A stretch of 64,000 bases of DNA, taken from the NCBI GenBank assembly GCA_002331145.1, contig DCYT01000001.1, positions 154,002 to 218,001 of the forward strand, written 5' to 3'. The stretch comes from Candidatus Minusculum obligatum. GTDB taxonomy: Bacteria > Patescibacteriota > Minisyncoccia > Phycocordibacterales > Phycocordibacteraceae. Below the pieces are notes generated by a model. It worked only from the letters and a program-made list of their open reading frames with translations, was not told the DNA's origin and did no database searches. The translations under genes were made by a program, and so were the position numbers. Within the stretch, counting starts at the first letter, position 1, and every line of letters begins with the position of its first letter. Shown piece after piece: positions 13,001 to 33,399 of the stretch.

Positions 13001-14278
13001 AGACGCCGTAGTCACGATGTCTGCCAGGCCCGAACCGGACTTGGCCACCGCACGCACCTCCGTCATATTGCCCCGGCCGTCATAGCTAAAGCTGGTGTAG
13101 TTGCCCTCCGGCGCCGTGACGCGGGAGACACGCAGGTCAGAATTGTACTGATAGGTCGTGCGGTGGCCTAAAGCGTTCTCAACCGCAGTTAAGAGCCCGT
13201 CATCACCCTCAAATTCATAGCGCGTCACTTCTCCGGCAGGATCGGTGACTGTGGTCACCAGCGTGCCGCCATTGTCGGTGTAACTATAGAACCAAGTTTC
13301 GCCCGCAACTGTCATCGACTGTATGACGCCCGACGTACCGATATAGTTGATCGAGACATCATTGCTGGAGCTGCCTGGCAGGCGCACTCCTGTGATCCGG
13401 CCCGAGCCGTTCCGATAGGTGTGCGTCACGCGACCCAGATTGTCGGTGTAGGACCAATTGGAGCTGGTATAGTTCATCGTCAGGCTCGGCCAATTTTCCG
13501 TCAGGCCCGAGCATGTATTCGCCGTGCGCGAACAATAATTGACCGCATTATTGATGAGCCTAGCCGTCTTCACAGTACGCCAATCGTTCAACTGGCTCTG
13601 AGAACCTACGTTGGACGCGCGCCGGTATTCGAAATGGAGCTGGTATCCGCGATTGGTGGTGACGGATTGGAGCCGGTAATAGGGCCCGTAGGTGACGATG
13701 ATCGGTTCCGGCCAGCCGCCTTGCTGAATAACCATGTTCGTGGAGCTGTAGTGGTAGGTCCACTCCTCCCCATTCGGGAAGGTCACCTTTGTGAGCACAC
13801 CCTCGTCGGCACCGTAAAACGACGTCTGCCCCACCTTCGAGGACGAGAAGGTCGCCACAACCCCGCCGCCCGTCGTGTAAGTGTAATTGCCGCCGCTATA
13901 AGTCAGCGTAGCACCATTTTCCTGTTCCGGCGAATACGTACTGCCAGATTTGGTGAAGACTTCCGTGCCGCCAAACAGGCTAACTCGATATTCGGTAGAT
14001 GTTTGGGCATGGACGGTCCCCATCACCGAATGCGACCAGCCATTATCTTGAAAAGTCTGGCTGTAACTCAGTCCGCCCGCACCAGCGTCGCCGATAGAGA
14101 TCTCTGGCGAAGACCCGGTAAACACATCGTCGGAGAGGTCGACGCCACGCTCATCAAATGTGGGATAGATCCGCGGCTGGCTCCCGCCATCCTGGGCCGA
14201 AGCGATACTTAAACTGGCAATTGAAACGGACAGCGCGGCGACCAAATGCGAAACAAGCGAACGAACAAGCAACATCAA
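10040..14278 (-). CDS. Secreted RHS/YD-repeat polymorphic toxin with a C-terminal glycine-zipper toxin domain.
   Basis: Sec signal peptide (MMLLVRSLVSHLVAALSVSIASLSIASA). Dozens of YD repeats (YDPLGRL, YDALGRR and others). RHS core ...GRFMQTDPIGQAGGLNIYAYVGGDPVNYTDPNGE. This is followed by about 240 aa of variable C-terminus with GxxxG-rich hydrophobic stretches (AVGGAIIGGVAAAG; GFIVGGAAGGVAG) and an internal VSIVDI repeat. Confidence 0.9.
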   Translation of the reverse strand: MMLLVRSLVSHLVAALSVSIASLSIASAQDGGSQPRIYPTFDERGVDLSDDVFTGSSPEISIGDAGAGGLSYSQTFQDNGWSHSVMGTVHAQTSTEYRVSLFGGTEVFTKSGSTYSPEQENGATLTYSGGNYTYTTGGGVVATFSSSKVGQTSFYGADEGVLTKVTFPNGEEWTYHYSSTNMVIQQGGWPEPIIVTYGPYYRLQSVTTNRGYQLHFEYRRASNVGSQSQLNDWRTVKTARLINNAVNYCSRTANTCSGLTENWPSLTMNYTSSNWSYTDNLGRVTHTYRNGSGRITGVRLPGSSSNDVSINYIGTSGVIQSMTVAGETWFYSYTDNGGTLVTTVTDPAGEVTRYEFEGDDGLLTAVENALGHRTTYQYNSDLRVSRVTAPEGNYTSFSYDGRGNMTEVRAVAKSGSGLADIVTTASYPSSCLNERTCNQPTSVTDPAGNTTNFTYAGTHGGMLTATAPAPSGSGDRPQTRVSYSAHYAWYKNASGQMVQASSAIYLPHQSAACSTGTSSSCAGTANEQRTNIAYGSSGVANNLQPTAVTAMAGNGTLSATSTLAYDAVGNILTVDGPLSGSADLTRTRYDDLRRVIGQVGPDPDGGGPLKHAASRTTYDSSGRVRMVEFGTVTSQSDAAWNNFARRDYQLVTYDNNHRVTHSRLIDGTGVTQALIQYSYDSAGRLDCTAQRINPSTFASPPSSACTLGTAGVYGPDRIARSSYDDLSRVTSVTTAYGTSAAAIEGVSTFTANGLLESLKDGNGNRTQYLRDGFDRLASIEYPHPSSPGSNTGNDDEIYTYDAYGRLASRRVRTNQLFQYSYDNLNRVTNVNAPSGQADTSYSYDLLSRVLTVTAAGQGTVTNAYDALGRRTAQTGANGTVSYQYNNLGQRTRMTWADGFYVTYDYNTLGAPTAIRENGAGSGVGVLAQFSYDDYGRRTSITRGNGVTTSYAFDAASRLDSLSQNLAGTSNDRTVSFDYNPAGQITSRTDSNDAFTWNGHVNMDLLYGHNGLNQITSVTSQPAPTYDGRGNMTDDGTRTFGYDYYNRLTSVSGGTTLSYDPLGRLAQTTGAATLNFQYDGLDLIAEYNGSGALQKRYVHGPGIDEPLVQYTGSGTSSREWLIADERGSIVAHTNGSGNATQINTYDEYGMPYSGNSGRFGYTGQVFLENTGLYHYKARAYHPGFGRFMQTDPIGQAGGLNIYAYVGGDPVNYTDPNGECGTPLSAVGGAIIGGVAAAGWEMFVTATSTGLADGRRATGRELLGAAVNGFIVGGAAGGVAGYTCNPQAAATTWRVTAGVLLVKGGADIVGAVGNRVISNGGPARYGTVSIVDISTYDPQNGWSPGIRLSRPGANDIAEGSVSIVDIPTQDPVTEARNGESGVGGGYGGWMVSFANRGAGGIRRDEGTVTIEDVD

Positions 14279-15316: not shown

Positions 15317-16291
15317 CTACGGGGTCAAGACTACCGACCCTAGCGCCAACCGTTTTTCCAGAAGGGCGTGCGCCCGAGACGCTTCAAGAAACGGTAGAGA
15401 CAAGTGCTGTAGATCGTCGAAAAGACCGTCGGCACAAGTGTTCCACACCGCCTCAACGGCTTCTTTTCTTTGCTCGTTACTCGCCAAATAGGTGCTAGAG
15501 GTAGGACGTGTCACATAGAGCGAACCATGTTTAGCAAGAATTGAGAGGTCGAAATTTACGACCGGCCCGGAAGCGGCGCCATAGTGAACCCAGATTGCCT
15601 GCTCAGCTAACACCGCCAGACAGATATCCGTGGCCGCCGCACCTACGGCATCGTAGACAGCGTCCACACCGCGGCCGCGGGTCAGCTCGCGAACTTGTTC
15701 AATGACTTCGCTCGTATCCCCGCGAAGAACATGATCGCAGCCGGCAGCGGAAGCGAGCGCGACCTTTCCCGGGCTTCCTACTTGGCCGATGACTTCGGCG
15801 CCGAGCATTTTGGCGAACCGAACGACCGCCCCACCGACGCCGCCACTGGCGCCATTGACGAAGACTACGCTACTCTCACGTACGGTCCAAACCTTGTGCG
15901 TGAGATAATAGGCAGTCATGGCTTTGAACAAGATAGCCGCAGCCAGATCCGCTGAAACGCCCGCTGGTCGATGAAAAACGCAGGACTCGTCCAATGCGAC
16001 GTACTCCGCATATGACCGGCGACCGGCAAAAGCGTAGGCAACGCGATCGCCTGGCCGAAACCCTTCCACATCTCCACCGACCTTAGCGACGACTCCCGCG
16101 CCCTCCTCGCCAATCCCGGATGGAAGCGGAACCACATACACCCCTGACCGGTTAAAGATGTCGACATAGTTGACGCCGATCGCGGCGTTTTCGATCAGGA
16201 TCTGAAGCGGTCCGGGTTCGGGAATGGGCGCAGTTTCTTGGATCAAAACATCCGGCCCGCCTGGCGCGGCAAAAACCATCCGTTTCATCAT
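15317..16291 (-). CDS. qor: NADPH:quinone oxidoreductase / zinc-type medium-chain dehydrogenase.
   Basis: 324-aa MDR-family protein with nucleotide motif VNGASGGVGGAVVRFAKMLGAEVIG and a GroES-like N-domain. Confidence 0.8.
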   Translation of the reverse strand: MMKRMVFAAPGGPDVLIQETAPIPEPGPLQILIENAAIGVNYVDIFNRSGVYVVPLPSGIGEEGAGVVAKVGGDVEGFRPGDRVAYAFAGRRSYAEYVALDESCVFHRPAGVSADLAAAILFKAMTAYYLTHKVWTVRESSVVFVNGASGGVGGAVVRFAKMLGAEVIGQVGSPGKVALASAAGCDHVLRGDTSEVIEQVRELTRGRGVDAVYDAVGAAATDICLAVLAEQAIWVHYGAASGPVVNFDLSILAKHGSLYVTRPTSSTYLASNEQRKEAVEAVWNTCADGLFDDLQHLSLPFLEASRAHALLEKRLALGSVVLTP

Positions 16292-16767
16292 GCCACGACC
16301 TCCTTTTCATTTGCGCTCGCCGATGCAGAGTGCCGGGCACTCGTGCGGCGAAATTGCAGACGTTCACGCTCAAGCAGGCGATCGAGATTCCTCCAGGCAT
16401 CCGGCCCGCTTAAGACAGCGTCATATCCTGCCCGTTTGAGCGCCAGTACAACCATCGGGGGCACGAGACCATCGATCGTCAGCTTGCCGCCAATGACGAT
16501 CGTCGAGGCGCTGAACGCCTGATATTGCAGGAGCGTTTCCGCCAGCGCCAGACCGCTCAAAGCGCCGTGACCATTGACGGAGCTGATCACGGTCAGATCG
16601 GGCCGGTGATCGCGAACACTCTCGGCGACGTGTTCCGGCTGGGTGCAGCAGCCCAAATTCATCACGTCGAAGCCGCGATCGCGCAGCTCTAGCTCGACAC
16701 CAGTCAAATTCCAGATGTGGCTGTCGTCAACGGTAGACGCCACGATTGCTAACGGCTGGTAGGTCAT
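16288..16767 (-). CDS. glmS: Glutamate mutase (methylaspartate mutase) B12-binding subunit S. The start was taken at an internal Met to avoid overlap with glmE.
   Basis: Cobalamin-binding Rossmann-like domain (IVASTVDDSHIWNLTGVELELRDRGFDVMNLG...). It has small-subunit size and sits directly after the E subunit, consistent with the GlmE/GlmS pair. Confidence 0.6.
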   Translation of the reverse strand: MTYQPLAIVASTVDDSHIWNLTGVELELRDRGFDVMNLGCCTQPEHVAESVRDHRPDLTVISSVNGHGALSGLALAETLLQYQAFSASTIVIGGKLTIDGLVPPMVVLALKRAGYDAVLSGPDAWRNLDRLLERERLQFRRTSARHSASASANEKEVVA

Positions 16768-16771: not shown

Positions 16772-18052
16772 TTACTCCTCTTCTGCGGCATCAAATCGGC
16801 GCTGGTTGAAGCCGAGCATGGTGTGAAATCGCTCGGCGGTGAGACTGCCCTGGCTCGCTGGCGCATCAGCCTCTATCGGCATGGAGCCGGTGGTGGCCCA
16901 CCTGATTGCGCCTGTGCTTTCGTCCAGCACACTCAGGGATTGATTGCGATTGTCTTGGTGTGTGCAGAAAGGCACGTCGAGCAGCCCCTGCTCGAACGCC
17001 TTTCCAAGCGCGCGCCCCACATCGGGATCCAGGCTCAGGGTTGCGGCGATCAGCCTTTCGGCATTCGACCGGATCATGTTGCGCCACACTCCGACGGCTG
17101 CAGGCCGCTCCGTAGCCTCCTCGGCGGCAGAAGCCGCGGCAGCGGCGGAGCGATCCAAAGCCTCAAGATTGTCGGCGAGCGTCGGGATGCCGTGCGCCTC
17201 GGCCTTGGTCTTAACGATCAGCCGGTGGGCACCGCCTCGGGCGGCGATTCTCGACCCATTTTCGATTAAGGCGTAGCTGCCCGCTTCGGTCTTAGGGAAT
17301 TGGCCCATGAAGTGGTAAGCGACAATGTGCCAGTCGCGCTCAAAAAACCGCTCTTCGCAGATATCGTTCAACGCAAGAAGCGCGCCCTCATCCTGCTCGT
17401 CGCACGTCCCCAATGCGAGAGATGCGGAGACGCTCGGAATGCCGAGCTGAAAGAAGTACGCACACTCCAACACCGAAAGCGCGATCAGCAAGTCGGGCGG
17501 ACACGCCTGGCCCATCATGCAGCCGCCGAATGTTTCGTGATGAACCTCAATCCCCCGGCGTTCGGCAGCATTAGCCAGGCACCGGAGCGCTTCGCGCCAG
17601 TATCGCAGTGTGTCTCGCAGCGGCACGCGGCCATAGGGCAAGGCGTAGCTTACCGGTCCGCCCTCGGTTGCGCTGAATCCGCCTCCTATCACGCGGCTAT
17701 AAAGGTGACGGGGATCCGGTGTACCGTGTCGGATCTGGATCGTGAACCGCTCGCCCTGCTCCGCCGCAAGCGAACACACATCGGCCAATCGGTGGCTGAG
17801 TAGCGGGAAGCCGTTCAAGGCCTCACCCCGCCGTAACGCTTCGGTCGCATCCTCAATCAGGCCCTGGCGTGTTTTGGCATCGATCGTGATCGTGCCGGCT
17901 ACAAAAGCGGCACTGGAGTCATCGCGAAAGGCTGTCAGCAAGCTGCGCATATCCTCAAGGTCGGCAACTCCCGAGCGTGGTTGGACGATGATCTGCCCGG
18001 CGGAGCGCGCGGTACGCGCGAACTCCGCGAAGCTGTAGAGCGCATTACCCAT
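16772..18052 (-). CDS. glmE: Glutamate mutase (methylaspartate mutase) epsilon subunit E.
   Basis: Motifs matching clostridial GlmE (from memory): QPRSGVADL, LNGFPL, IRHGTPDPRHL, TEGGPVSYALPYG, HHETFGG, VIVKTKAEAHGIPT. The ATG overlaps the upstream desaturase stop (TAATG). Confidence 0.7.
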   Translation of the reverse strand: MGNALYSFAEFARTARSAGQIIVQPRSGVADLEDMRSLLTAFRDDSSAAFVAGTITIDAKTRQGLIEDATEALRRGEALNGFPLLSHRLADVCSLAAEQGERFTIQIRHGTPDPRHLYSRVIGGGFSATEGGPVSYALPYGRVPLRDTLRYWREALRCLANAAERRGIEVHHETFGGCMMGQACPPDLLIALSVLECAYFFQLGIPSVSASLALGTCDEQDEGALLALNDICEERFFERDWHIVAYHFMGQFPKTEAGSYALIENGSRIAARGGAHRLIVKTKAEAHGIPTLADNLEALDRSAAAAASAAEEATERPAAVGVWRNMIRSNAERLIAATLSLDPDVGRALGKAFEQGLLDVPFCTHQDNRNQSLSVLDESTGAIRWATTGSMPIEADAPASQGSLTAERFHTMLGFNQRRFDAAEEE

Positions 18053-19257
18053 TAGAGGCCCTCCTTTCGCGCCGGTGCTGCCGCCTTCGCGCTGCGCAAG
18101 AAGCCAAGCAGCGCGGCGCAATAACCCCAGTTGACCGGGTTGAGGGGATCGCCTTTGGCGATCAGGCGGCAGCGGAACTCATAGGCCGCTCGTTCACCGT
18201 CTCCGATATCGAAGGCACGCTCATGATGGGCGGCATGTCCCCACGCGCTGTCGCGTGGGAAAGCAATCGCACGCAAGGCAAAGTTCAATGCTTGACGCAC
18301 ATAGTACGTGCTGCGCGCGGCGAGGCCGGCATTATCAGCCAGACAAGGCTCGACGAGGTGATTGACCGGGGTGAGGAAACGGCGCAGAGCGCGCGGTTCA
18401 AATGCATCCTCACGGGCCGGCCGCCAACGGTGCTCGAGCGGCAGACGCAGCATCTGTGCGAGCTGGAAGCCCAGCGTGATAGGTAGCACCCAAGCAATCA
18501 GCAGAACCTCACCGAGGCCGACCGCCGCCAGCGCGCCCCAGGTGCAGAGCTGGATCCCCGCAGCAGCCTTGGTGAACGTCGCCCCGGTAAAATTAGCGGC
18601 CACCCTGCCGAAGAAGATGCGAGCGTGCGTCCACGGGTTGAAGAAGTTCAAAGCTAGGCGCCGCGCATTTTCGCGCACCGGGGCACCCGGGCGGACTCCC
18701 ATATAGAAGGTGAGGAACCAGTAGGTCGGGTCGCTCGGTGTCGACAATTTGAAGGGCGAGTGGTGATCGTTTTTGTGATCGGGCGCATAGCCGGACTTGC
18801 CTAATTCGAAGGGCTCGATCAGCAGGAGCGCAGACAAGATGTGCCCCGCCGCGCGCAAAGCACGCTCGTGCGGTTTCGCGTGCGCGGCGATATGAATGGT
18901 CACAAGTTGAGCCCACCGCGCCGAGCGGACCACGATCAGGGCCGGCAGGATTGCAGTCCAAGCCATCCCATTCAACGCGAGGCCGGCAGCCACGATGCTG
19001 GCACCTGCCAGGACGCAAGCATTAATGACCATGCGGATGGAAGCGCTCAGCCGAGCCAGCGGCTGACTAAATACCGGCAGGCCCGACATGAACTCAAACA
19101 TCGCGAGCGGAATCCAGCCCAGCCGACCCCAAGCTTTCGCGTTCGCACACTCTCCATCGATACGCTCTTCCGGCGTTTCCTGATAACCTCCCTGCGAAAA
19201 CGGCTTCAGATCCGGTTCTGCCAGGGTGACATTTTCTGTTGCATATTGGTTGGACAC
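18052..19257 (-). CDS. Membrane-bound di-iron fatty-acid desaturase / hydroxylase family protein.
   Basis: 401-aa polytopic protein with histidine boxes HIAAH, HKNDHH and HAAHH. Confidence 0.6.
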   Translation of the reverse strand: MSNQYATENVTLAEPDLKPFSQGGYQETPEERIDGECANAKAWGRLGWIPLAMFEFMSGLPVFSQPLARLSASIRMVINACVLAGASIVAAGLALNGMAWTAILPALIVVRSARWAQLVTIHIAAHAKPHERALRAAGHILSALLLIEPFELGKSGYAPDHKNDHHSPFKLSTPSDPTYWFLTFYMGVRPGAPVRENARRLALNFFNPWTHARIFFGRVAANFTGATFTKAAAGIQLCTWGALAAVGLGEVLLIAWVLPITLGFQLAQMLRLPLEHRWRPAREDAFEPRALRRFLTPVNHLVEPCLADNAGLAARSTYYVRQALNFALRAIAFPRDSAWGHAAHHERAFDIGDGERAAYEFRCRLIAKGDPLNPVNWGYCAALLGFLRSAKAAAPARKEGL

Positions 19258-19718
19258 CGCTATCCCTCCATAGTTGTTACAGAGAGCCGCGGCACACGTT
19301 GCGGTACTACGCTGAAGACTGCGTGGCCCATGTACGCCGCACTCACGCCAGCAGCTTCCGCGATGAGCAATTCGTTCGAAAATTGAAAAATGCGGCGAAC
19401 TTTCGTCTTCGCCGCGATGACGGTCCGATGGACATAAAAGTCTTAACCCTCGGATGCGTTAAGGATTAAGAAACCGAGACCACTACAAGGTGTTTCGGTT
19501 TTAAATCAAATAGTTAATAGACAAAAACGCTTCACCAATTAACCATATTCCGTCCGCGCTCTCTCGCTCGGTGCGGCGAAGCCAATAGAATTGGTGACCA
19601 TCTTCAGAACTGCTTTTTGAACGTCAAACTTTTTAGTTCTCACCTGGCGTGACGCTTCAACCTGTGATTTAAACCCGCTCGGGTTTGCTGATAAATATCG
19701 GCAACAAGGGGGACGTGC

Positions 19719-22700
19719 ATGCCTGGGTCTAACCCAAGAAAAAACCGGAACTTCACGGCCGCGGCATGGGAAAGTGTTCTCACTTGGCGAACCCTAAGCG
19801 ACCATGAGCGTGCGTCAATAAAGGCGAGCAAGAACGACCCGGATCGCGAGAAGCTGCGCCTCGCGGGCAGCTACTATGACCGCCACGAAGTTAAAAAGAA
19901 CGGTTGGATCTACGGCGAGGCGGATAACGGGATGGAAGTCTCGGAAACCGGCCTTGGTTGGAAGTTCCGTGCGCGTATCATCTGGCATCTGTTTGAAGAG
20001 ATCTCGACCTATCCAGGCCTAGAGATCAAAGATCTCCAGGATCTCGTTCGGGATCACGATGATCAAGTGACATCCGTCACTCGTAGTGCTGCCTCCAGCG
20101 GCCCGAAACCCGAAGCAATCCGCTTAGATTATCTTTGCGACCTCGGGTACCCGGGCAAACCTGCCATGTATGAGCGTAGTTTCAATGCGCTGCTTCGCTG
20201 TGCATTCGACACGTTTGTCCAGAAAGCCAATGAGAAACTGGACTTCGAAACATTCGTTAAGCGTTGCAAGGAAACTCCACTCACCGACCGCGACGCGCCG
20301 GCCCAATTCCAACGCTTGCTAAGCCGCGGTTTCGTGGACATCCAATCGCAATTCGATATCAAGCCCGAACGAAATCTCTATAGCCTCGATCTGCGTCAGC
20401 CAGCGCTCGACGCGCTGGCAACATTTCTGCGGAAGTCAGATTATCGTCCAGTTCAAACGGTGCACAGCAAGAACAATCGAAGTGCGCTGACGGCGATCGC
20501 CGACCGGATCCACCGGATTGGCGTCGAGTATCAAACGAAGAGTGACGATGGTGATCTAGTCGCCAAGACTTATTTGCTCGCTGGAGATCAGCGCCCTTGC
20601 CTTTACCTCCGAGCCTCGCGCGTCAGCAAGGAGCGGCCCGTCACCCTGCCGCAGCTCGTCGGCAAACTTAAAGCCTTCTACCTCGGCGAAGCGGTGGAAA
20701 CCGCACCGACACCAACATCGCACGCGGAGTATCTGTCCGCGCTGAAATTCGTCCGTTCCGCGGTCATGCAAACGCCAGCGATCATAGTGTTCGATGGTCA
20801 TCGCTCCCCACGCGGTTGGCCGACCGCCCTGCCGAGCCTCATCTCTGATGATGGATTGTCGACGCTCCTGCGCGATTTACTGACGCCGCGCCTCAGCCAA
20901 CGCGATGCGCAACTAGATGTCCGCGCGTTCTACAAAACCCGCATCCTGGTATTGACGGACGACGAATTCTCAGAGGACGGCGAGGGTAAGAAACCGCCGC
21001 TTCAGGTACACCCGCTACAGCAACAGAAACCGATCAACATTGTCGCCCCCGATCCGGACGATATCCCTCAGCTGATCGACGACCACAAATGGCAGAATAA
21101 AACGAGCTTGAAGAGCATCGCTCAAAGCCGGTCAGCGAGCTTCGTCGATGGTGCGGTGCTGCGATTGACCGACACTTGGTTGACCGTTGTCGGTCACACA
21201 TACAATTTGGAGCGGGATCGAAACAGCGCGCTCAATTCCCTTCTCGGAAACTCATCTCGCGATTTAGCGGACGCGATGAACGAGCACCTGCTCGAAAACA
21301 AGCCTTCCGCGTTCTTGCTCCTGCGATGGATTGCGCTCGCGGAAAGCGAGATCCGCGCCTCGACGCTCGCGCGCCTCCTGACGAGTTGGAATTATCTCGC
21401 AGCCAAACGCAGCAAACGCCAGGGACAGTCCGGGATTGCACAAGCGAAAGCCGTGCCCACGAAAGATATCGTTAAGCTTCTGGAACCATTTGATTCCATT
21501 CTAACCTACGGACCAGATGAAAGTATGGACGGGCTTGATGGCCCTTACTTTCCACCGATCGAACGAATTCCGATCGCACGCAAAAAATCATCGCCCATCC
21601 CCGCCTATCGTCGAACTCGCTCTTACTCTTTCGTGACGAATCAAATCTGTTCGGATTTTCTGGAGTTTCGCCGCGATGACGACGCGCTGGAGGCTGAGCG
21701 GCTTGACATGTACCGGCTCCTCGCCGAGGAAGCCTTCCGGCAAGAAGCGGCGATCATGCGTCATGCACCGCGAGCTGCGTCACTAAACGTCCGCCGCCTG
21801 CGCCGCATGTGTGAAGGGCTTCATTACGGGTTTGCCAGCTTGCCCAACGATCCGTCGAGTATCGACCAGTCGCTGCGCGTCCTAAGCCGAAGTCTCGCCG
21901 TAAATCCGAGAAACGCATTCAATCATTTGTATCTAACTTTTTACCGGCACGTCTTGCAGCATGCGCCAGATTTTGCACTGACCCGCAATTTGGGGCGGCC
22001 AGCAATCGCTTCCGATCTCATCATGAGTGCGGTTTGGTGCGGCATTCGCAACCCGCCGGTCCACCGGACTACTAGTCTACCGCCAACCAATTCCCCGTAC
22101 TTGAACCCAGACCTCAGCAGGTCTGAATCACACAACCTGCCCGATAATGGGATACGCGAAAAGAATACGCACAAGGCACTCGCCAAAGACATCTATGTCT
22201 CGCTAATTCGCAACCTCATCAACGCAAACCGCCTGGACCTAGCTCATTCGGCGCTTGAGAAGGCCAAGGAAAACTGGACCGGTCCACGGGCCAACGGCAC
22301 GGGCCTGGATGCCCTTTCGAAAGTCGAGATCGACTTGGAATTGCTGCGGACGGATCCATCGCGCAATATCGCCAATATCAAGGGGCTATTCGATAAAGTT
22401 CTTATCGCGGGACCGCGCAGATGGCGCCTACTGAAATATCGAATTGAGAAAACAGTGCGCTGGCTGCCGAGCCGCCTCAATAAAGCCGGACCGTTTGAAG
22501 ATCTGACCAATGTCTACGACTTTCATCATCAGCTAAAGTCCGACATCAAGGCAGCGGCGGTTCAACTGACCCGCGGCATGAGCACACAGGATATTGAACG
22601 CGGTGCGGATCTATTCGCGCGCCTGGCCGAAGCGGAAGCCATACGAGCAGACAGTAGCTCAGACAACACGGATAAGATCGCGCTATCACGCTTCGTAACC

Positions 22701-23453
22701 GCTTGGGGCTTTTTCCATGTGGCAGAGGTTCTGCGGGATCAAGTCTTTCAAACCGACCCGTTGGGCCGGGACTACTTACCGAACCCGCATACCAACCGGG
22801 TCTTCGTGCGGGTTAGCTTGAAGCTACATACCATTCTCCGAGATCACACGCGACGATCGGCTCCAGGCTTATTGCTCGGCGCAGAAGGAGACTGGAGGGG
22901 TTCAGACGAGGGCACAACGTTGAAGCCGAATGCGTGCAGTCTGCTCGCTCAGTTCTTTGCCTATCAAGCCCAAAAACAGCTAGATCTCGTAACCCGGTTT
23001 CAGTTTCAGTTTTTGGCCGAAAGACCGAGTTTGCTCATGAGCGAGGCCGCTGTGATACGCACAGTTCGCGACGCGCCGGAAAAAGCTCTGGTTCTTCTCG
23101 GCGAAGCCGACGATCTCATCGCCGGCAATATGGATCGGCCGAGGCTGACCTTCCGCCTCGCGCTAGAGCGCGCCAAGGCGCTCCGGCAATTGGCGAAAAA
23201 ACCTGATGAGCCGTCGCGGCAGGCCATGCTGCTGATCGCAGCGGCAACGGAAACGCTGCGCTTAGAAGCCTTGCAGCAACGCGATGACGAGGGTGATCAA
23301 CGGGCGACGGGCGAGCGCCTGTGGAAGTTTGTGACGGTCCAGCAGAAAGCGGCGGTTAAGAAGAGCATTCAAGAGCTACGTAAAGCGCTTGGCAAAGAGC
23401 TTCACCAAGAAGACGACAAGGAACTTGAGCAACTCTGCAATTTGCTTTCCTAA
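19719..23453 (+). CDS. Large orphan hypothetical protein (1244 aa), mostly alpha-helical, with no recognisable catalytic motifs.
   Basis: Single uninterrupted ORF. It is preceded by a 460-bp AT-richer spacer with hairpins and RBS-like GGGGGA before the ATG. No Walker A, nuclease or methylase motifs were found. The C-terminal half is repeat-like helical. Codon GC is slightly lower than in the neighbours. Confidence 0.7.
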   Translation: MPGSNPRKNRNFTAAAWESVLTWRTLSDHERASIKASKNDPDREKLRLAGSYYDRHEVKKNGWIYGEADNGMEVSETGLGWKFRARIIWHLFEEISTYPGLEIKDLQDLVRDHDDQVTSVTRSAASSGPKPEAIRLDYLCDLGYPGKPAMYERSFNALLRCAFDTFVQKANEKLDFETFVKRCKETPLTDRDAPAQFQRLLSRGFVDIQSQFDIKPERNLYSLDLRQPALDALATFLRKSDYRPVQTVHSKNNRSALTAIADRIHRIGVEYQTKSDDGDLVAKTYLLAGDQRPCLYLRASRVSKERPVTLPQLVGKLKAFYLGEAVETAPTPTSHAEYLSALKFVRSAVMQTPAIIVFDGHRSPRGWPTALPSLISDDGLSTLLRDLLTPRLSQRDAQLDVRAFYKTRILVLTDDEFSEDGEGKKPPLQVHPLQQQKPINIVAPDPDDIPQLIDDHKWQNKTSLKSIAQSRSASFVDGAVLRLTDTWLTVVGHTYNLERDRNSALNSLLGNSSRDLADAMNEHLLENKPSAFLLLRWIALAESEIRASTLARLLTSWNYLAAKRSKRQGQSGIAQAKAVPTKDIVKLLEPFDSILTYGPDESMDGLDGPYFPPIERIPIARKKSSPIPAYRRTRSYSFVTNQICSDFLEFRRDDDALEAERLDMYRLLAEEAFRQEAAIMRHAPRAASLNVRRLRRMCEGLHYGFASLPNDPSSIDQSLRVLSRSLAVNPRNAFNHLYLTFYRHVLQHAPDFALTRNLGRPAIASDLIMSAVWCGIRNPPVHRTTSLPPTNSPYLNPDLSRSESHNLPDNGIREKNTHKALAKDIYVSLIRNLINANRLDLAHSALEKAKENWTGPRANGTGLDALSKVEIDLELLRTDPSRNIANIKGLFDKVLIAGPRRWRLLKYRIEKTVRWLPSRLNKAGPFEDLTNVYDFHHQLKSDIKAAAVQLTRGMSTQDIERGADLFARLAEAEAIRADSSSDNTDKIALSRFVTAWGFFHVAEVLRDQVFQTDPLGRDYLPNPHTNRVFVRVSLKLHTILRDHTRRSAPGLLLGAEGDWRGSDEGTTLKPNACSLLAQFFAYQAQKQLDLVTRFQFQFLAERPSLLMSEAAVIRTVRDAPEKALVLLGEADDLIAGNMDRPRLTFRLALERAKALRQLAKKPDEPSRQAMLLIAAATETLRLEALQQRDDEGDQRATGERLWKFVTVQQKAAVKKSIQELRKALGKELHQEDDKELEQLCNLLS

Positions 23454-23462: not shown

Positions 23463-25391
23463 TCAAAAAAGCAGCTGACCAGATGCGAACCTCATCCGCT
23501 TCTCCAAATCCCGTTGGCGATGGTTCGGGACAGATTTGCCAGCTTCCCAACGGCCAATAGTTCGCCCATCGACACCTATCCATTTCCCAAACTCATTCTG
23601 TGTCCACCCCCGTATCGCTCGGAAACGATATAGTCGCTCGCCGAACGAGGTGTTCGGCAGCCAACCATCGCTCTCGAGTAGCTCGATTACCTTTGGAAGG
23701 TGCTTGATCCTCGGTTCATGCTCGCCGCGCTCCCACAGACCAATCATCTCATGATGTACGCCGAGGCGATGCGCGAGCTGTCGCTTGGTCACGCCGAGTT
23801 CTCGCCGCCTTTGAAACAGTTGCTCGCCAACTGATCCGACCGCTATATCGGCGTACTCGGTATTTCGCCCCCAAAGGCTCAGAGGCCTGTTGGGGAAAAA
23901 GATGCAGCAACCCAACGTATTCTTCATGTAATTCCCGTCGTCTTGTTGGGAAGGGACATAGTGAAGGTGAATCGCTATGTCCCTTCCCCCTATTACGATT
24001 TGGTCGGTGATCGCCTCGATCACCGACCTTTTTTGTTCGAAGGTTAGTTCGTCCCAACGGTCATAGAGGGTTCTAGCGCCTGAGATGATCTCCTCACTGG
24101 AGTCTGAGGTCACGCGGAGCGCTGCAACTTCGCCCTCGATGGCAGCTATGCCGAGGGCGAGTTCATCGATCCGCTCCCCCATCTCCTTGTCGAGCGGCGT
24201 AAAGCGTGTGGCTTCCACCTCTTCATCCAGATACCCACGAAGCAGCTTCTCACGGTCTCTGCCGAGCTGGGATCGCTCCTTCTCCAGAGCCTGGATCTGG
24301 GCTTCTTTCGCGTTGACTTCGTCGAGGGTCGTTTTGAGGAAATCTGCCAGCTCTTCCGGAGACGCGAAGAAGGCGCGAAGCCGGTCACAGAAAATCGCCT
24401 CAAGATCATCTTGAGGAATTTTGCGACGGCACTTCCGGCAAACGAATTTCGGTGACTCATTGAGGACGTACATTGTCTCGCCGTCCGCCTCGCATTTCAC
24501 CTTCCCGGAGAACAGGTAATTGCCCCGCGGCCCTGGCGATCGCCCTTCGCGTTGTTTCTTCAAAATTGCGTTGCAGCGCTCCCAAAGCTCCGGTGCGACG
24601 ATCGCCTCGCAAGGATGCCATTCCCACTCATCCTCTGGCTTGATCGAGACCTTGCCACCGCGCTGATCGGCCGTCGTGTAGTTGCAGCGGCGCAATCCCT
24701 TCGCTGCCGGATCGACGAGCAAGAGTTGAATGGACTGGATTGAGAACTTGTTGCCTCGGCGCGTGCGAAAGCCTCGCTCATTGAGAATGCGCGCGACGGT
24801 TCCTTTGCGCTGGTATTCCGCGAAGAGCTCGTAGGCGAGCGCGCGAACCGGCGCTTCGTCCGGATGGGGTAAAAACTCATCCCCGACCCAGTGGTAGCCA
24901 TAGGGTGCCGCACCGGCGACTTTTCTGCCCATCTTTGCGCGGGTGACGACGGCGGCCTTGACGCGATCAACAATCTCCTCGCGCTCCCACTCCGCCAGCC
25001 CGGCAATCATCGTGTAGAAGAGCCGGCCTGACGGCGTGGTGGTGTCGATGCTCTCTTGCAAGGAGATGAGGTCGGCATTGTGCTCGCGGAAGAACTCGGA
25101 GACTTCCAGCAGACCTTTGGTGCTACGAGCCAGGCGCGCCAGCTTGGAGAAGACCAATGCCGAGATGCGGCCGGTTCGAACGTCGTCCAGCATCCGCTTG
25201 GCTTCAGGATGGTCCATAACCGCTTTTCCGGACACCCCAGAGAGGTCATAGACCTCCGCGACCGACCAACCCTTGAACTGCGCATACTGCTCGGCGCGCG
25301 CCTTGTGAGTGGCTGGGCTGTCGCCCTTGGCTTGGTCTTCCGTCGATACGCGAATCCAAACGCCGACCGATCTGACATCCTGTTGGTGCAT
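23463..25391 (-). CDS. Large serine recombinase with C-terminal tandem XRE-family HTH domains.
   Basis: N-terminal resolvase domain with catalytic VWIRVSTEDQ. Recombinase domain and zinc-ribbon (CEADGETMYVLNESPKFVCRKC) plus a coiled-coil. The last about 110 aa carry two Cro/C1-type HTH (LGVHHEMIGLWERGEH; FGKWIGVDGRTIGRWEAG). Confidence 0.85.
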   Translation of the reverse strand: MHQQDVRSVGVWIRVSTEDQAKGDSPATHKARAEQYAQFKGWSVAEVYDLSGVSGKAVMDHPEAKRMLDDVRTGRISALVFSKLARLARSTKGLLEVSEFFREHNADLISLQESIDTTTPSGRLFYTMIAGLAEWEREEIVDRVKAAVVTRAKMGRKVAGAAPYGYHWVGDEFLPHPDEAPVRALAYELFAEYQRKGTVARILNERGFRTRRGNKFSIQSIQLLLVDPAAKGLRRCNYTTADQRGGKVSIKPEDEWEWHPCEAIVAPELWERCNAILKKQREGRSPGPRGNYLFSGKVKCEADGETMYVLNESPKFVCRKCRRKIPQDDLEAIFCDRLRAFFASPEELADFLKTTLDEVNAKEAQIQALEKERSQLGRDREKLLRGYLDEEVEATRFTPLDKEMGERIDELALGIAAIEGEVAALRVTSDSSEEIISGARTLYDRWDELTFEQKRSVIEAITDQIVIGGRDIAIHLHYVPSQQDDGNYMKNTLGCCIFFPNRPLSLWGRNTEYADIAVGSVGEQLFQRRRELGVTKRQLAHRLGVHHEMIGLWERGEHEPRIKHLPKVIELLESDGWLPNTSFGERLYRFRAIRGWTQNEFGKWIGVDGRTIGRWEAGKSVPNHRQRDLEKRMRFASGQLLF

Positions 25392-25418: not shown

Positions 25419-25664
25419 TTAGAGCCAGTTGTGGCTCGCCCCGTCGATCAAAGTTGATACCGAGATATCCATCGTTCGCGCCGCGGCGAACAGGCGGGAT
25501 GCGCCCAGGCGCCCGCGGGCATCTTCGATCAACGCCAGGTGCGCGGGAGTAAGGCCAATCTCTCGAGCGAGATCATTGGTGCGTATTCCCTTGAGGCATC
25601 GCCAGAGACGCACCTGCCCGCCAATTCTCGTATCAATCGCGTCCTGCACGTCTGCCCCCGGCAA
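25419..25664 (-). CDS. XRE-family HTH transcriptional regulator.
   Basis: 81-aa protein with the motif LAREIGLTPAHLALIEDARG, typical of Cro/C1 HTH. Confidence 0.7.
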   Translation of the reverse strand: MPGADVQDAIDTRIGGQVRLWRCLKGIRTNDLAREIGLTPAHLALIEDARGRLGASRLFAAARTMDISVSTLIDGASHNWL

Positions 25665-26415: not shown

Positions 26416-26461
26416 TCGTAGTATTTCGCCCGTCAAGAAAGAAATAGGCCACCGGCCCACC

Positions 26462-27058
26462 TTGGCGCGCTTCACATCCATGATTTTCGATCTTCACGGC
26501 AACAGGAAGTACCTCACGCCTGCCGAGCGGGAGAGGTTTATCAATGCTTGTTATGCATTGCCTGAAGAAGAACAAACCTTTTGCCTCGCCCTCGCGTTTT
26601 CCGGATGCCGGATATCGGAGGCGCTCGCCTGCACTCCTGGTCGGGTCGACCGGGATATGCAGGCGCTAGTTATTCGATCGCTCAAAAAGCGTGTTGATGA
26701 GCCAGTATATCGTGCTGTTCCCCTACCTTCATGGCTTCTCGATAAGTTTAGCAGGCTCAGCGAAGGTTTGGATCCTCACCAGCGTTTGTGGCCCTGGGGC
26801 CGCACCCACGGTTGGAAAACTATCAAGCGCGTGATGAGCGCTGCGAGGATATCTGGAATGCATGCGACGCCGAAGGGGTTGCGCCACGGGTTTGGGGTGG
26901 CAGCGGTTCAAAGCGGAGTGCCGCTAAATCTGGTGCAGAGGTGGCTTGGTCACGCAAAGCTGGAAACAACCGCGATCTACACCAATGCGATTGGTGATGA
27001 GGAGCGCGCTATCGCCGCTCGGTTATGGGGCGACGTACAGCCCAAGCAGGCCGCCTGA
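26462..27058 (+). CDS. Short tyrosine recombinase (FimB/FimE-sized, 198 aa); putative DNA invertase.
   Basis: C-terminal catalytic region LRHGFGVAAVQSGVPLNLVQRWLGHAKLETTAIYT (R...H-x-x-R...Y). The gene lies entirely between inverted sites A-left and A-right. Confidence 0.8.
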   Translation: MARFTSMIFDLHGNRKYLTPAERERFINACYALPEEEQTFCLALAFSGCRISEALACTPGRVDRDMQALVIRSLKKRVDEPVYRAVPLPSWLLDKFSRLSEGLDPHQRLWPWGRTHGWKTIKRVMSAARISGMHATPKGLRHGFGVAAVQSGVPLNLVQRWLGHAKLETTAIYTNAIGDEERAIAARLWGDVQPKQAA

Positions 27059-27059
27059 C

Positions 27060-27088
27060 TGTGAACACTCTACCCCAAAGTGTTCACG
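27060..27088. repeat. Recombination core-type site A-right (inverted copy of A-left).
   Basis: TGTGAACACTCTACCCCAAAGTGTTCACG. The spacer is the reverse complement of the A-left spacer, so the two sites are inverted relative to each other. Confidence 0.8.
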
Positions 27089-27172
27089 AATACTTTAGCG
27101 CTGTCAGTGGATCCCTCCAAGTGAAGTAGTGGACCATAGACACCAAAAAAAGATTGGGTAATAATTCATTTA

Positions 27173-27199
27173 TTTGAATACTATAGTGCATAGCGTTCA
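27173..27199. repeat. Recombination site B-left (TTTGAATACTATAGTGCATAGCG).
   Basis: 21 of 23 bp identical to the reverse complement of 29953-29975. It shares the TGAA(C/T)AC half-site with the A sites. Confidence 0.65.
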
Positions 27200-28009
27200 A
27201 TGTGGTGACTGGCTCTCGATTCGGGTCAACGCTTGTTGAACACCCCGCAGCGCCTCTCGACGCCCTTCGAGAACGAACGACGCATCTGGCCCACGGCACC
27301 GGGTCCAATCCGACAGCTCTGGCAAATTTTCTGTGATCGCTGCTTCCGACGAAACCTGAACTTGATCGATGATATCGGCGTTTGCACTCAAGTGCTCATC
27401 CACACCAAATCCGGACACGCGAGCCTTGTTAAGGTCCAGCGATATCCTGGCTGCCTTTCCGAACATCTCTACCACGGCTCGGAGTTCTTCAGGCGACACT
27501 CCGATATGCAAGGGCGTCCGATGTTGGCCGGTCGCGGAAGTCAAATAGTACGAGCCATTTTCAATTAGGAGCGGCATCTGTCGACTGGCTGCGTAGTCAC
27601 CGAGTTCACGCATTGATGGCTCAGCGTTCCGCCAGTAATTCTTGGTCTGCTGCTCCTGGGACCTCCATCCGCCAAACATATACCCGGTATGGATGGTGAC
27701 AGAACGGCCGCCAATGTCCTTCGCCAAATCAATAACCGACCTGACAACAGCCTTGGAGGAGTCGCGGACCTCAGGCACGAGTGAAGTGTAATTGATGTCG
27801 TAATAGACGCTGTGAACGTGAAGTTCGACTCCGAGACTTTCGGCTAAGGCACGAAGGCTTGATCTACGCTCACTGTCGAATTCCACAATGAGATTTGGAG
27901 TTTGATCGGGAATTAGCTGAACCGCAGAAAATTCTTGCTCCGCTGCAGCCACAATAAAGTCTTCAAACCGCGACCCATAGGCTCTCGAATATGACAATAT
28001 CGTGTTCAT
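27197..28009 (-). CDS. Xylose-isomerase-like TIM-barrel protein (sugar-phosphate isomerase/epimerase, AP-endonuclease-2 fold).
   Basis: 270-aa protein with a TIM-barrel pattern (VQLIPD..., ...HVHSVYYDINYTS..., TIHTGYM..., PLLIENGSY). Confidence 0.55.
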   Translation of the reverse strand: MNTILSYSRAYGSRFEDFIVAAAEQEFSAVQLIPDQTPNLIVEFDSERRSSLRALAESLGVELHVHSVYYDINYTSLVPEVRDSSKAVVRSVIDLAKDIGGRSVTIHTGYMFGGWRSQEQQTKNYWRNAEPSMRELGDYAASRQMPLLIENGSYYLTSATGQHRTPLHIGVSPEELRAVVEMFGKAARISLDLNKARVSGFGVDEHLSANADIIDQVQVSSEAAITENLPELSDWTRCRGPDASFVLEGRREALRGVQQALTRIESQSPH

Positions 28010-28012
28010 GAT

Positions 28013-29263
28013 TTAGATTATATTTCTTATGTATTCAATTATGGAGCCGATATTCTCCCCATATACCATTCTCGCTATTCCGAATAAATATACCACAATA
28101 ACAAACGAATATGTTATCCATTTCTTGAATATTTTTGGCCTCACCTTGATCATATAAAACGGAATCAACACCATTGGCGCGACAACAATTATGTCCAGGT
28201 AACTCGGGGCCGACAGATAAAATCTGTGAAGTCCAAACATAATGATGACCGCTAAGCATACAAAAAACCAAAACGCCGCCCGGTACAAATGAGCCGGCAT
28301 TATCGTCGCCCAGCGGCTATGCACTTTGAATTTCACAAAATCAGGCTCTTCGAGTTTCGGCTGCACGATAGTCGCGTCCACTCGAAGCGTATCCCGTGAT
28401 GGATCAAATCCGCGCTGAATGGCATTCAGCGTCTCCGCGGCCCAGAACTGAACGCGCACTGTCCGCCCAGAAGAACGCCCGCTCTCTGTCCAACCAGCTC
28501 CGTTGAGATGCGTACTGTTTATCCATCGCACGGCCTGGGAAATACTTTCGCCGTAAACAGGCACCCCTAGTGCAATCATAGCTGGAATGATTGCGTAGGC
28601 ATCGCAGTGCTTCCATAGCGTGCCATCGACACGCGCCTCAAAGAAGCCCCATGAGAACGGCGCTTCGAATTGATCGCGAACGGCCTCAAAATCTCCCGGG
28701 TCGAAATCACGACAACAAGCCAGCGCTTGAATTGCGTACCCCGTAGCTACCACAGTCGGCTCATCGTCGCTGGCAAGCGACCAAGAATTTCCGCGCCGTT
28801 GAACGCGGAGCCACTTCGCCGCATTGCTAATTTCATCATCAAACTGTTCAGCAAGCGAAAGCGCCTTTGTTGCCAGGTGCGTCGAAAACACATCTGACTG
28901 ATCGTCAGCCGCCGTGGCACCCCATCCCCCATCACTGTTAACCGCTTGGAGAAGATGATTTATCGGACCGGTAGCGAGCGAGGCTGCATCTGGCCTGTTA
29001 GCCCAATAGCAAGCCATTGCGGCGAACGCTGAAAAACGGGTGCGCGCACCACGCTCCTCAATATGACTCGCGTAAACGTCGAGGAGGAAGTCCAGCCCCG
29101 ACAGAGCCGTATCTTCATCGCCAGCAAGTTTAAGTACACGAATTGCCTCAGCAGTATTTACGATTGAACTCGGTTGCTGATGGGTCAATCCCCAGCCGCC
29201 GTTGTGATTGCGATTCTTTCGCAACCAACGCGCAGCAGATTCTAGTTGAGTTTCATACGGCAT
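28013..29263 (-). CDS. Prenyltransferase/squalene-oxidase-repeat (alpha/alpha-toroid) protein fused to an AT-rich C-terminal multi-transmembrane extension.
   Basis: Repeats NHNGGWGL, NSDGGWGAT and NGAGWTESG. The last about 100 codons are conspicuously AT-rich and encode three or four transmembrane helices (FWFFVCLAVIIMFGL...). Confidence 0.6.
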   Translation of the reverse strand: MPYETQLESAARWLRKNRNHNGGWGLTHQQPSSIVNTAEAIRVLKLAGDEDTALSGLDFLLDVYASHIEERGARTRFSAFAAMACYWANRPDAASLATGPINHLLQAVNSDGGWGATAADDQSDVFSTHLATKALSLAEQFDDEISNAAKWLRVQRRGNSWSLASDDEPTVVATGYAIQALACCRDFDPGDFEAVRDQFEAPFSWGFFEARVDGTLWKHCDAYAIIPAMIALGVPVYGESISQAVRWINSTHLNGAGWTESGRSSGRTVRVQFWAAETLNAIQRGFDPSRDTLRVDATIVQPKLEEPDFVKFKVHSRWATIMPAHLYRAAFWFFVCLAVIIMFGLHRFYLSAPSYLDIIVVAPMVLIPFYMIKVRPKIFKKWITYSFVIVVYLFGIARMVYGENIGSIIEYIRNII

Positions 29264-29332
29264 GGCAGTCTCTATCTATTTCACATGCTAGCGGCTGACG
29301 GCTTAACTCGCACCAGCTTAGATGGTCGGTCT

Positions 29333-29890
29333 TTAACCCCACATGCGAGACGCGATCAGTCGTTCTTCCTCGCCAACTGCATTTGCGTAGATGGCCGTCG
29401 TTTCCATCTTAGCGTGCCCAAGCCATTTTTGAACCAGGCTAAGCGCCACTCCGCATTGTATCGCGTTTACACCAAATCCGTGCCGCAGCCCCTTAGGAGA
29501 CGCGTGTGCGCCGACGATTTTCGCGGCTGACATGACGCCCTTGACCTTGCTCCAACCAGTGGTGCGGGACCACGGCCACAGGCGATCCGATTGCTCTAAC
29601 CCCGCTGCTCGAATGTATTCCTTCAATTCCGCAATCACGCTCGGCGGAACTGGCACAGCTCGGAATTCCCGCCGTTCGCGCTTCTTGAGACTCTTGAATA
29701 TGACGACGCAATCTGTGTCGTCGACTAGATCGACTGTCGTCGCCAAAGCCTCGGAAATTCGGCATCCGGTAAACGCCAACACGACGCAGAAGAGCCGATC
29801 GGCAGCTGCAAGTTTCTCGGACAAGCTCAGAAAGCGCGCCCGCTCGGATCGATTAAGGTACATTCTCGCTCCAGCGTTGGAATACATCAT
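29333..29890 (-). CDS. Second short tyrosine recombinase (185 aa), a paralog of the first (about 60 % identical).
   Basis: LRHGFGVNAIQCGVALSLVQKWLGHAKMETTAIYANAVGEEERLIASRMWG. The whole protein is colinear with the first recombinase. It lies inside the B-left / B-right inverted pair. Confidence 0.8.
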   Translation of the reverse strand: MMYSNAGARMYLNRSERARFLSLSEKLAAADRLFCVVLAFTGCRISEALATTVDLVDDTDCVVIFKSLKKRERREFRAVPVPPSVIAELKEYIRAAGLEQSDRLWPWSRTTGWSKVKGVMSAAKIVGAHASPKGLRHGFGVNAIQCGVALSLVQKWLGHAKMETTAIYANAVGEEERLIASRMWG

Positions 29891-29952
29891 AAAACTCTGC
29901 GCTAACCGAACCCGATTTCAAACGGTCTTGACGCGCGCTGTTAGCTGATAAT

Positions 29953-32908: not shown

Positions 32909-32913
32909 CGTGG

Positions 32914-33318
32914 TCAGGCCGGCTCGATCTCGACAATCTGTTCGGACCCGTCAAATTGCCGCGCGACATCGATATAGCCGCGAATGTTCCGGCAGGCTTG
33001 ATGAACCTGGTTTTCCGTGGCGACCACCTCGTTCAGATCCTTGCATTCCAAGTGCTGGCCACTCACCAGGTCGCCGAGCGAAAAAGAGCGCTTCGTCACG
33101 CGGTCCATGAGCGCGCCGCCCAGGCCGGCCCAGCTTCCCGCTTCTGATTTTGCGAGGTTTTGGTCAGCCGCCTCGGATGTGTAAACGAGTTGGCCTTTGA
33201 GCTTGTACTTTTTGACCAGCTCGGCCTCCTCGTCGGTCAGTTCAGCCATCACGTCGAGAATGAAAATCGGTGTTCCGGTCAGTCCTGATTTTTGGCTACG
33301 GCGTAGTTTGAGTTGCAT
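32914..33318 (-). CDS. Small hypothetical protein (about 133 aa) encoded between the two ATPases.
   Basis: The ORF is tightly packed between the ATPase genes (6-bp gap downstream). No recognisable motifs. Confidence 0.45.
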   Translation of the reverse strand: MQLKLRRSQKSGLTGTPIFILDVMAELTDEEAELVKKYKLKGQLVYTSEAADQNLAKSEAGSWAGLGGALMDRVTKRSFSLGDLVSGQHLECKDLNEVVATENQVHQACRNIRGYIDVARQFDGSEQIVEIEPA

Positions 33319-33399
33319 CTCTGCCTCCCCTGTTATTCGCGTCAAGCGCGAACCGATCAAAGCAAGACAACCTAAAAGAGTCGAGATAAATTTGGCGAT

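Follow-up and report, generated by a model that had tools for sequence, protein, structure and literature searches.

A divergent gene cassette in a probable integrated element

We analysed a 64,000-nucleotide stretch of contig DCYT01000001.1 from Candidatus Minusculum obligatum (assembly GCA_002331145.1; the whole stretch is called the window below) and, within it, the gene of a 1244-amino-acid (aa) protein that resembles the signal transduction ATPases with numerous domains (STAND) and the NLR (nucleotide-binding leucine-rich repeat) receptors in predicted fold but lacks their P-loop. As a preliminary description of this DNA had proposed, the gene is a single open reading frame (ORF) on the forward strand (19719-23453). 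It has an ATG start and a stop codon at 23451-23453. A GGGGGA ribosome-binding site lies just 5′ of the start, and the N terminus of the protein is kept in a homologue of 61% identity. On its upstream side, a divergent intergenic region of 461 bp (19258-19718) separates the gene from an operon on the reverse strand. On its downstream side, the ORF of a 642-aa large serine recombinase (23463-25391, reverse strand) converges on it and ends 9 bp from its stop codon, where 10 bp had been given. The GC content is 0.492 in the spacer, 0.559 in the 1244-aa gene, 0.608 in the operon and 0.579 in the recombinase, in agreement with the earlier account of an AT-richer spacer of about 460 bp and of a gene with lower GC than its neighbours.

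The divergent operon comprises four genes. The first encodes a 401-aa membrane protein resembling desaturases and hydroxylases (18052-19257; weak FA_desaturase match) and the second a glutamate (methylaspartate) mutase E-like subunit (16772-18052; Pfam Met_asp_mut_E, 5.5e-79). Domain scans and gene calls identify the third as a B12-binding, MutS-like small subunit (16288-16767) and the fourth as an NADPH:quinone-reductase-type oxidoreductase of the medium-chain dehydrogenase/reductase class (enoyl/quinone-reductase-like; 15317-16288). The mutase E/S pair is divergent in sequence and does not reach the NCBIfam equivalog cut-offs.

The same four divergent genes accompany the 1244-aa gene in the window and at the loci of its two close relatives, of 73% (L004-L007, L017) and 61% identity (L001-L003). 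The desaturase-like protein has exactly three members among 5.8 billion proteins, at 100, 72 and 59% identity, mirroring the 1244-aa protein. Because the operon, the three-member distribution and the degree of divergence are all shared, the five genes form one co-inherited, co-diverging cassette, which is repeatedly found beside mobility genes. The flanks of the cassette vary. Beyond the operon lie an RHS toxin gene in the window, an IS240-type transposase fragment in the 73% relative and an rve-type transposase in the 61% relative; downstream of the 1244-aa gene lie, respectively, the serine recombinase, an M90 peptidase followed by a tyrosine integrase, and unrelated small genes. Adjacency to a serine recombinase, raised in the preliminary description as a possible feature of the orthologues, is therefore confined to the window, and the gene is not isolated, as had been supposed, but has a constant partner in the upstream divergent operon. 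A literature search for a cluster combining a mutase with a desaturase found no such cluster. The analysis also draws attention to this unstudied B12-mutase/desaturase-like cassette, the desaturase-like member of which has only three known relatives.

A STAND-like fold with a degenerate nucleotide site

We modelled the protein with AlphaFold2 using an 81-sequence alignment (residues 20-1219; predicted local distance difference test (pLDDT) 86.5, predicted template-modelling score 0.88); a second AlphaFold model covered residues 1-640 (pLDDT 80.3). Four regions can be delimited. An N-terminal helical domain (residues 1-244; 19719-20450), seen in the AlphaFold2 model and the alignments, contains two family motifs, GLGxxxRxR at residues 78-86 and FxGxxAxxxFxxWL at about 185-201. 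It is followed by an α/β nucleotide-binding-like domain (NBD; residues 245-415; 20451-20963), delimited by the order of strands and helices, by Foldseek and by column counts. In this domain parallel strands alternate with helices, and it contains a degenerate P-loop, VHSKNNRSALTAIA, a Walker-B-like AIIVFDG and a β4 strand, TRILVLTDD. A helical domain and a winged-helix-like domain come next (residues 416-645; 20964-21653; AlphaFold2 secondary structure and Foldseek). The remainder is an α-solenoid of the tetratricopeptide-repeat (TPR) type (residues 646-1244; 21654-23450; AlphaFold2 and Foldseek), which shows the highest conservation within the family, with many near-invariant arginines and a coiled-coil-like tail.

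The preliminary description had suggested a structure-based search, and AlphaFold with Foldseek gives an NLR/STAND-type fold for the N-terminal half. The top matches of this half in the PDB are the wheat G10, NRC4 and Sr35 resistosomes (9h2l, 9cc8, 7xx2), CED-4 (2a5y) and archaeal Orc1/Cdc6 (2qby, 1w5s), with probabilities of about 1.0 and E values from 6e-5 to 2e-3. The alignments to the CED-4, NLR and Cdc6 chains span 400-570 columns and cover the NBD, helical and winged-helix domains. When the whole model is searched against the PDB, only TPR-type solenoids are returned, plus Cdc6 and SAMD9 at low rank, and the C-terminal half returns TPR solenoids only, such as APC5. The protein therefore has the STAND core arrangement of NBD, helical domain and winged helix followed by a repeat sensor.

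The nucleotide-binding motifs that normally accompany this fold are degenerate. Where STAND proteins have GxxxxGK[ST] after β1, the family reads G-M-x-x-G-L-[TS]-A-L-A, and the 1244-aa protein itself reads SKNNRSALTAIA (VHSKNNRSALT). The column of the Walker A lysine holds leucine in 66 of the 81 aligned members and lysine in none; matches to the Walker A pattern elsewhere in the family are scattered and not homologous. The Walker B strand has the form hhhh-D-G (AIIVFDG in the 1244-aa protein), with aspartate in 65/81 members and, at the second position, that of the catalytic acid, glycine in 75/81. Neither the STAND Walker A motif nor the Walker B motif hhhhD[DE] was found in the aligned members, and on these residues the NTPase site is predicted to be dead across the whole family. 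The earlier statement that the protein has no Walker signature thus holds for the sequence but not for the fold, which is that of a STAND/AAA+-type nucleotide-binding domain.

The consensus of the NB-ARC P-loop is GMGGxGKTTLA. The family remnant resembles it with one residue deleted and the lysine replaced by leucine, a resemblance that hints at descent from an AP-ATPase-like ancestor. A precedent for such degeneracy exists in the defence protein KpAvs8, which is reported to have degenerate Walker A and B motifs and a predicted loss of ATPase activity (PMC13581612).

The N-terminal domain is a possible helix-turn-helix (HTH) or DNA-binding module, judging from its sequence. In many members its N-terminal segment reads like an Xre-type HTH (for example GLGIYFRTRAAYKALEMTQEALAQECSITPRHLQ). 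When the domain is compared with a small Xre set by hhalign, residues 81-120 align in the expected helix register at a probability of 5.3%, and Pfam searches of 23 N-terminal domains gave one match to an Xre-like HTH (E 0.055) and one to GerE (E 0.14).

A rare family outside current annotation

A word-indexed search covering 5.8 billion proteins gave just three matches: the 1244-aa protein itself and its 73% and 61% relatives. We then used a three-sequence profile in HMMER against 1.84 billion cluster representatives, which gave 155 proteins with E ≤ 1e-3, of which 94 had E ≤ 1e-10; each stands for a cluster at 50% identity. The label of orphan given in the preliminary description is therefore apt in that just three proteins of at least 61% identity exist among the 5.8 billion, but not beyond this range, where the profile finds 155 remote relatives. 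These are nearly all of 1050-1350 aa and share a conserved core of about residues 260-1170, whereas the first ~200 residues are conserved among the closest members only, two short motifs excepted.

Neither the 1244-aa protein nor 42 family members matched any Pfam or NCBIfam model. PADLOC 2.0, which does not cover the families named after 2023 (Avs7-24), gave no match for the 1244-aa protein and one chance match among the 42 members. Profiles of the full-length protein, the N-terminal domain and the NBD with the winged-helix domain found nothing meaningful among PDB sequences. A scan of GTDB genomes found a member in an Oceanicaulis metagenome-assembled genome (MAG) only, a metagenome scan found only the two known close relatives, and PLSDB held one plasmid with a member. 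No relatives were found on viral contigs and no viral fold match in BFVD. The 1244-aa protein thus belongs to a rare, unnamed and uncharacterised family. As none of the searches with Pfam, NCBIfam, PADLOC and PDB sequences detects this family, surveys of bacterial STAND proteins that start from the P-loop probably miss it.

Divergent partner operons across the family

Divergent partners recur among the remote relatives. P0008 and P0009, which are 35% identical, share a divergent operon different from that of the window, composed of small ORFs, two unknown proteins and a radical S-adenosylmethionine (SAM) enzyme. The Oceanicaulis member (L010), the member on a plasmid of Rhodovulum sp. P5 (WP_081536260.1; L020) and P0017 are each divergent from three unknown or hypothetical genes, and P0006 and P0012 each from a single gene. 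Two of the three Rhodovulum partners have signal-peptide-like N termini, as read by eye.

We counted eight independent contexts (the window, L004 and L001 as one; P0008/P0009; L010; L011; the P0012 locus; L020; L021; and L015). A divergent upstream gene or operon is present in seven of them, giving P ~1e-3 as an estimate against an assumed rather than matched background of 25-30%. No homologous partner proteins were found between subfamilies, the L012/L014 pair excepted. Linkage to a putative target operon of the kind known for MalT, LAL and AfsR regulators is conserved within subfamilies, with the same operon kept at 73% and 61% identity and another kept at 35%. The products of the partner operons are enzymes or exported proteins, not classic defence effectors. 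Elsewhere in their surroundings, the relatives neighbour transposases, integrases, ArdA, IS6 on the plasmid and defence genes.

At the two loci of the 35%-identical relatives (L012, 12910-20822; L014, 233-8206), the two unknown proteins of the divergent operon are of about 400-500 aa and accompany tiny ORFs and the radical SAM gene. PALP, hexapeptide-transferase and AlaX-like genes adjoin this operon, so that it looks like a cluster for a ribosomally synthesized and post-translationally modified peptide or another peptide-modifying cluster. At L012, the next genes encode a complete QatABCD system and an AAA_21 ATPase. We also considered whether the 1244-aa protein is a reactivase or chaperone of the B12 mutase, and rejected this because relatives occur with operons that lack a B12 enzyme.

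The shared intergenic region

The 461-bp spacer is the internal divergent control region of the conserved five-gene cassette and presumably holds both promoters and any operator. Spacers of 454-461 bp with blocks of conservation are common to the window and the two relatives (L004 and L001). In the three-way alignment the best-conserved block, TTNGNTCTCACNTG...TCAACCTNTGATT (19633-19669), lies 50-86 nt 5′ of the ATG of the 1244-aa gene and is a candidate promoter or operator.

The preliminary description singled out two other features of the spacer. Of these, a hairpin is indeed present and stable (-15.5 kcal/mol; z = -4.6 relative to shuffles), but it lies at 19471-19501 and not at 19476-19506, and its 10-bp stem, which closes an 11-nt loop, contains one G·T pair and so is not perfect. 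The short palindrome AAACCCGCTCGGGTTT (19671-19686) also exists, at a distance of 33-48 nt from the ATG rather than immediately before it, and its folding is modestly unusual (z = -2.2). Both are lineage-specific: the sequence at the position of the hairpin in the orthologous spacers folds no better than shuffles (z = 0.39 in L004, 73%; z = 0.21 in L001, 61%), and the palindrome is lost from these spacers in the three-way alignment. We therefore rejected the hairpin and the palindrome as conserved elements.

A further stem-loop, of terminator type, lies on the reverse strand at 19392-19415. It belongs to the 5′ leader of the mutase operon, with a distance of about 135 nt to the desaturase-like gene downstream. 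The stem has 8 pairs, 6 of them G-C, and is followed by a T-run that overlaps a block conserved at all three loci; the stem is partly kept in L004. This element may be an attenuator or a new type of riboswitch for the B12-dependent operon. Rfam recognised no family in the spacer, this leader included, and found only tRNAs across the window. Near these structures the AT-rich word ATTGAAAA and its complement form an inverted pair (19382-19389 and 19499-19506) spaced 117 bp apart. The L004 spacer has the pair at the same 117-bp spacing (positions 118 and 235), and in L001 the two copies are only 11 bp apart. The word is of low information content, and the pair may have arisen by chance.

The spacer had been suggested as the boundary of an element or the remnant of an att site. 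Its position inside a conserved cassette, at similar length in all three loci, does not agree with this. We looked for direct repeats of spacer motifs at about 40.5 kb and found none, there or elsewhere in the window, beyond chance; the att or boundary idea is accordingly rejected.

Horizontally acquired surroundings

The window is divided by a sharp change in base composition, from a GC-rich block (1-40500; 57.5%) to 42.6% in the rest. The break coincides with a tRNA-Gln gene (40501-40574, reverse strand) and a second large serine recombinase (511 aa; 39074-40609, forward strand). The 3′ end of the recombinase ORF overlaps the tRNA gene and abuts dnaX (40587-41699, reverse strand), beyond which lie other core genes and tRNAs. 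An independent 11.9-kb assembly (L019) contains the same recombinase/dnaX junction, so that the GC break is not an assembly chimera, and this explanation was rejected. The junction (39074-41699) is probably the right end of an integrated element of at least 40 kb. The GC-rich block also contains genes for TrwB/HerA-like ATPases, a ParB-like protein, two small tyrosine recombinases, an RHS toxin and type II secretion. These contents and the junction identify the 1244-aa gene as cargo of horizontally acquired DNA. The mobile context and cargo status proposed at the outset are thus upheld, by the GC block ending at tRNA-Gln with a second recombinase, by the recurring junction and by the mobility genes beside relatives.

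Several other features of the block were recorded. The convergent serine recombinase contains Resolvase and Recombinase domains and two Xre HTH domains (Pfam), the latter in tandem at its C terminus (residues ~521-573 and 583-625), a fusion that we think is unusual; just upstream of the gene lies an Xre-like ORF of 81 aa (25419-25664, reverse strand). Two homologous genes for tyrosine recombinases of about 190 aa stand in inverted orientation (26462-27058, forward; 29333-29890, reverse) and enclose a segment of lower GC (0.50-0.52) with a xylose-isomerase-like TIM-barrel gene and a gene for a prenyltransferase/cyclase-like membrane protein. Independent assemblies of the same sequence, L008 and L009, both stop at about 26.42-26.44 kb of the window, just short of these genes, and the region 26440-29900 may represent a nested or invertible cassette, or a site that varies between strains. 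At 30029-36645 lie two TrwB/HerA-like P-loop ATPases (959 and 459 aa), each matching PADLOC mad8 at about 1e-14, beside a 582-aa protein with a ParB N-domain; together they could serve conjugation or partition, or form a defence-like module within the island. The RHS-repeat protein (1412 aa; 10040-14278, reverse strand) is of the polymorphic-toxin type and is encoded about 1 kb past the 3′ end of the mutase operon. The type II secretion genes include a secretin (7184-9166) and a T2SSE ATPase (4697-6352).

A tentative role as a nucleotide-independent sensor

The reading that we favour, tentatively, is that the 1244-aa protein is a nucleotide-independent, STAND-like sensor and regulator of its partner operon, carried as cargo of the integrated element. 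Our analysis shows the fold and the degenerate motifs, the inheritance of the gene together with the operon, and the divergent arrangement across the family; from these we infer DNA binding, a signal and a direction of control. A signal, whether ligand or protein, would bind to the solenoid and be relayed by the pseudo-NTPase and winged-helix core through conformational change or oligomerization, without nucleotide hydrolysis. Output would come from the N-terminal domain or the winged helix, which would turn the operon on by acting at the shared 461-bp intergenic region. Conserved divergent pairs, in the work of Korbel and colleagues, reportedly often consist of a regulator and its target. More generally, divergent gene orientation predicts functional linkage in prokaryotes (PMC2686466, citing Korbel et al. 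2004), and transcription regulators (MalT, GutR, AfsR) are among the non-defence clades of STAND proteins (PMC13581612).

Several results weigh against this proposal. The STAND relationship of the model is one of fold comparison only, and the global TM-scores of the Foldseek matches of the N-terminal half are low (0.2-0.43). No sequence-profile link to solved STAND proteins or to NB-ARC, NACHT, AAA_16 or nSTAND models was found with the 42 members or with the NBD-winged-helix profile against PDB sequences. No DNA-binding domain was detected: the window protein and its 42 relatives gave no GerE, Trans_reg_C or BTAD match, the N-terminal domains gave no consistent Pfam HTH match, and their profile found nothing among PDB sequences. 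Known STAND regulators require ATP binding, and the family appears, from its residues, to have no such site. The three orthologous spacers contain no repeated operator motif, the k-mer search returning low-information AT-rich words only. One context, that of P0011 (L015), has a co-directional upstream gene. Finally, defence-type neighbours occur in three of about nine contexts, a small sample taken with no background: QatABCD (L012), McrA-HNH with AAA_13 (L015) and caspase with trypsin (L021).

The last of these points bears on the main alternative, which we regard as unlikely, namely that the protein is a bacterial NLR-like (Avs-type) immune sensor. Its solenoid would recognise a protein of a phage or other mobile genetic element, its core would oligomerize, and the N-terminal domain or the operon products would be toxic or protective. 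The succession of NBD, helical, winged-helix and TPR-like domains is that of NLRs and CED-4, the gene resides in an integrated element, and relatives lie beside QatABCD, McrA-HNH/AAA_13, caspase/trypsin and ArdA. The rare and patchy distribution, together with the lower GC of the gene than of its flanks in L004 and L010, also fits. KpAvs8 is likewise reported to have degenerate Walker motifs, and Avs8 (EcAvs8, KpAvs8) kills the cell on sensing the major capsid protein (PMC13581612). Against an immune role, Pfam detects no nuclease, TIR, SIR2 or protease effector domain in the window protein or the 42 relatives, the Walker A lysine is missing family-wide, and PADLOC matched neither the window protein nor, one chance match apart, the 42 relatives. 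The partners are metabolic or exported and differ between subfamilies, and neither relatives on viral contigs nor viral structural matches were found.

Elements of sensing and defence could also be combined. A pseudo-NLR might detect an invader or stress and switch on a neighbouring small-molecule- or lipid-modifying operon, making the whole a mobile cassette for inducible chemical or envelope-remodelling defence on integrative elements and plasmids. We consider this distinctly improbable. Its outputs could be swappable, with the B12 mutase/desaturase/reductase set here and the radical-SAM/peptide cluster elsewhere.

We also see little likelihood in a third possibility, that of a non-regulatory factor for scaffolding, assembly or targeting, the solenoid of which would bring order to the membrane desaturase-like enzyme and the B12 mutase, and to analogous enzymes in other subfamilies. 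In its favour are the strict co-inheritance and equal divergence with the operon, the very large conserved solenoid of a protein-binding type, and the fact that no DNA-binding domain was detected. However, the partner operons of different subfamilies have no homologous protein in common, which makes a shared physical client unlikely, and scaffolds are normally encoded within the operon rather than divergently across a spacer of ~460 bp. A role in initiation or maintenance of the element, after the manner of Orc1/Cdc6 or DnaA and with the spacer as an origin-like site, is highly improbable: Foldseek does match Orc1/Cdc6 and, weakly, DnaA domain III, and an AT-richer spacer with a hairpin adjoins the gene, but the ATP site that initiators need is absent, the gene travels with a metabolic operon and not with the ParB/TrwB-like genes of the element, no iterons or repeats were found in the spacer and the hairpin is not conserved.

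STAND and NLR proteins are regarded as nucleotide-driven switches, yet here a family of ~155 clusters that keeps the fold has neither the P-loop lysine nor the catalytic acid; should it still act as a switch, the mechanism must be a different one. In addition, the recurrent pairing with unrelated divergent operons on mobile DNA would amount to a rule of one sensor with exchangeable outputs.

Comparison with known systems

The family has the same domain order as the AP-ATPase/NB-ARC STAND proteins (CED-4, Apaf-1 and plant NLRs), its top Foldseek matches, which likewise place NBD, helical and winged-helix domains before a C-terminal helical-repeat sensor. It differs from them in having no Walker A lysine and, in the members examined, no second Walker B acid, no Pfam NB-ARC, NACHT or AAA match, and no CARD, TIR or coiled-coil-type effector. 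Orc1/Cdc6 (2qby) superposes in the AAA+-like α/β domain, lid and winged helix (target-normalised TM 0.40-0.43), whereas the 1244-aa protein adds a solenoid of ~600 aa and an N-terminal domain of ~240 aa, has a predicted dead ATP site and shows no link to replication genes.

In overall organisation, MalT, GutR and the AfsR/SARP-LAL regulators are also single-chain integrators of ~900-1200 aa with an NTPase-type core and a TPR-like sensor, and they control a nearby operon or biosynthetic cluster. However, they carry LuxR or SARP DNA-binding domains and bind ATP, whereas no such domain was detected in the 1244-aa family and its site is degenerate. The Avs1-24 and bNACHT proteins are similar to the family in architecture, size and residence in mobile DNA or defence islands, the TPR-like sensor of the family is likewise large enough to wrap a protein, and KpAvs8 is reported to share its degenerate Walker motifs (PMC13581612). 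In contrast to them, the 1244-aa family has no effector domain, and the 1244-aa protein is constantly paired with a divergent enzyme operon. The family is a new, unannotated variant of the STAND/NLR architecture, marked by an NTPase site that is dead family-wide, as read from its motifs, and by a recurrent divergent partner operon.

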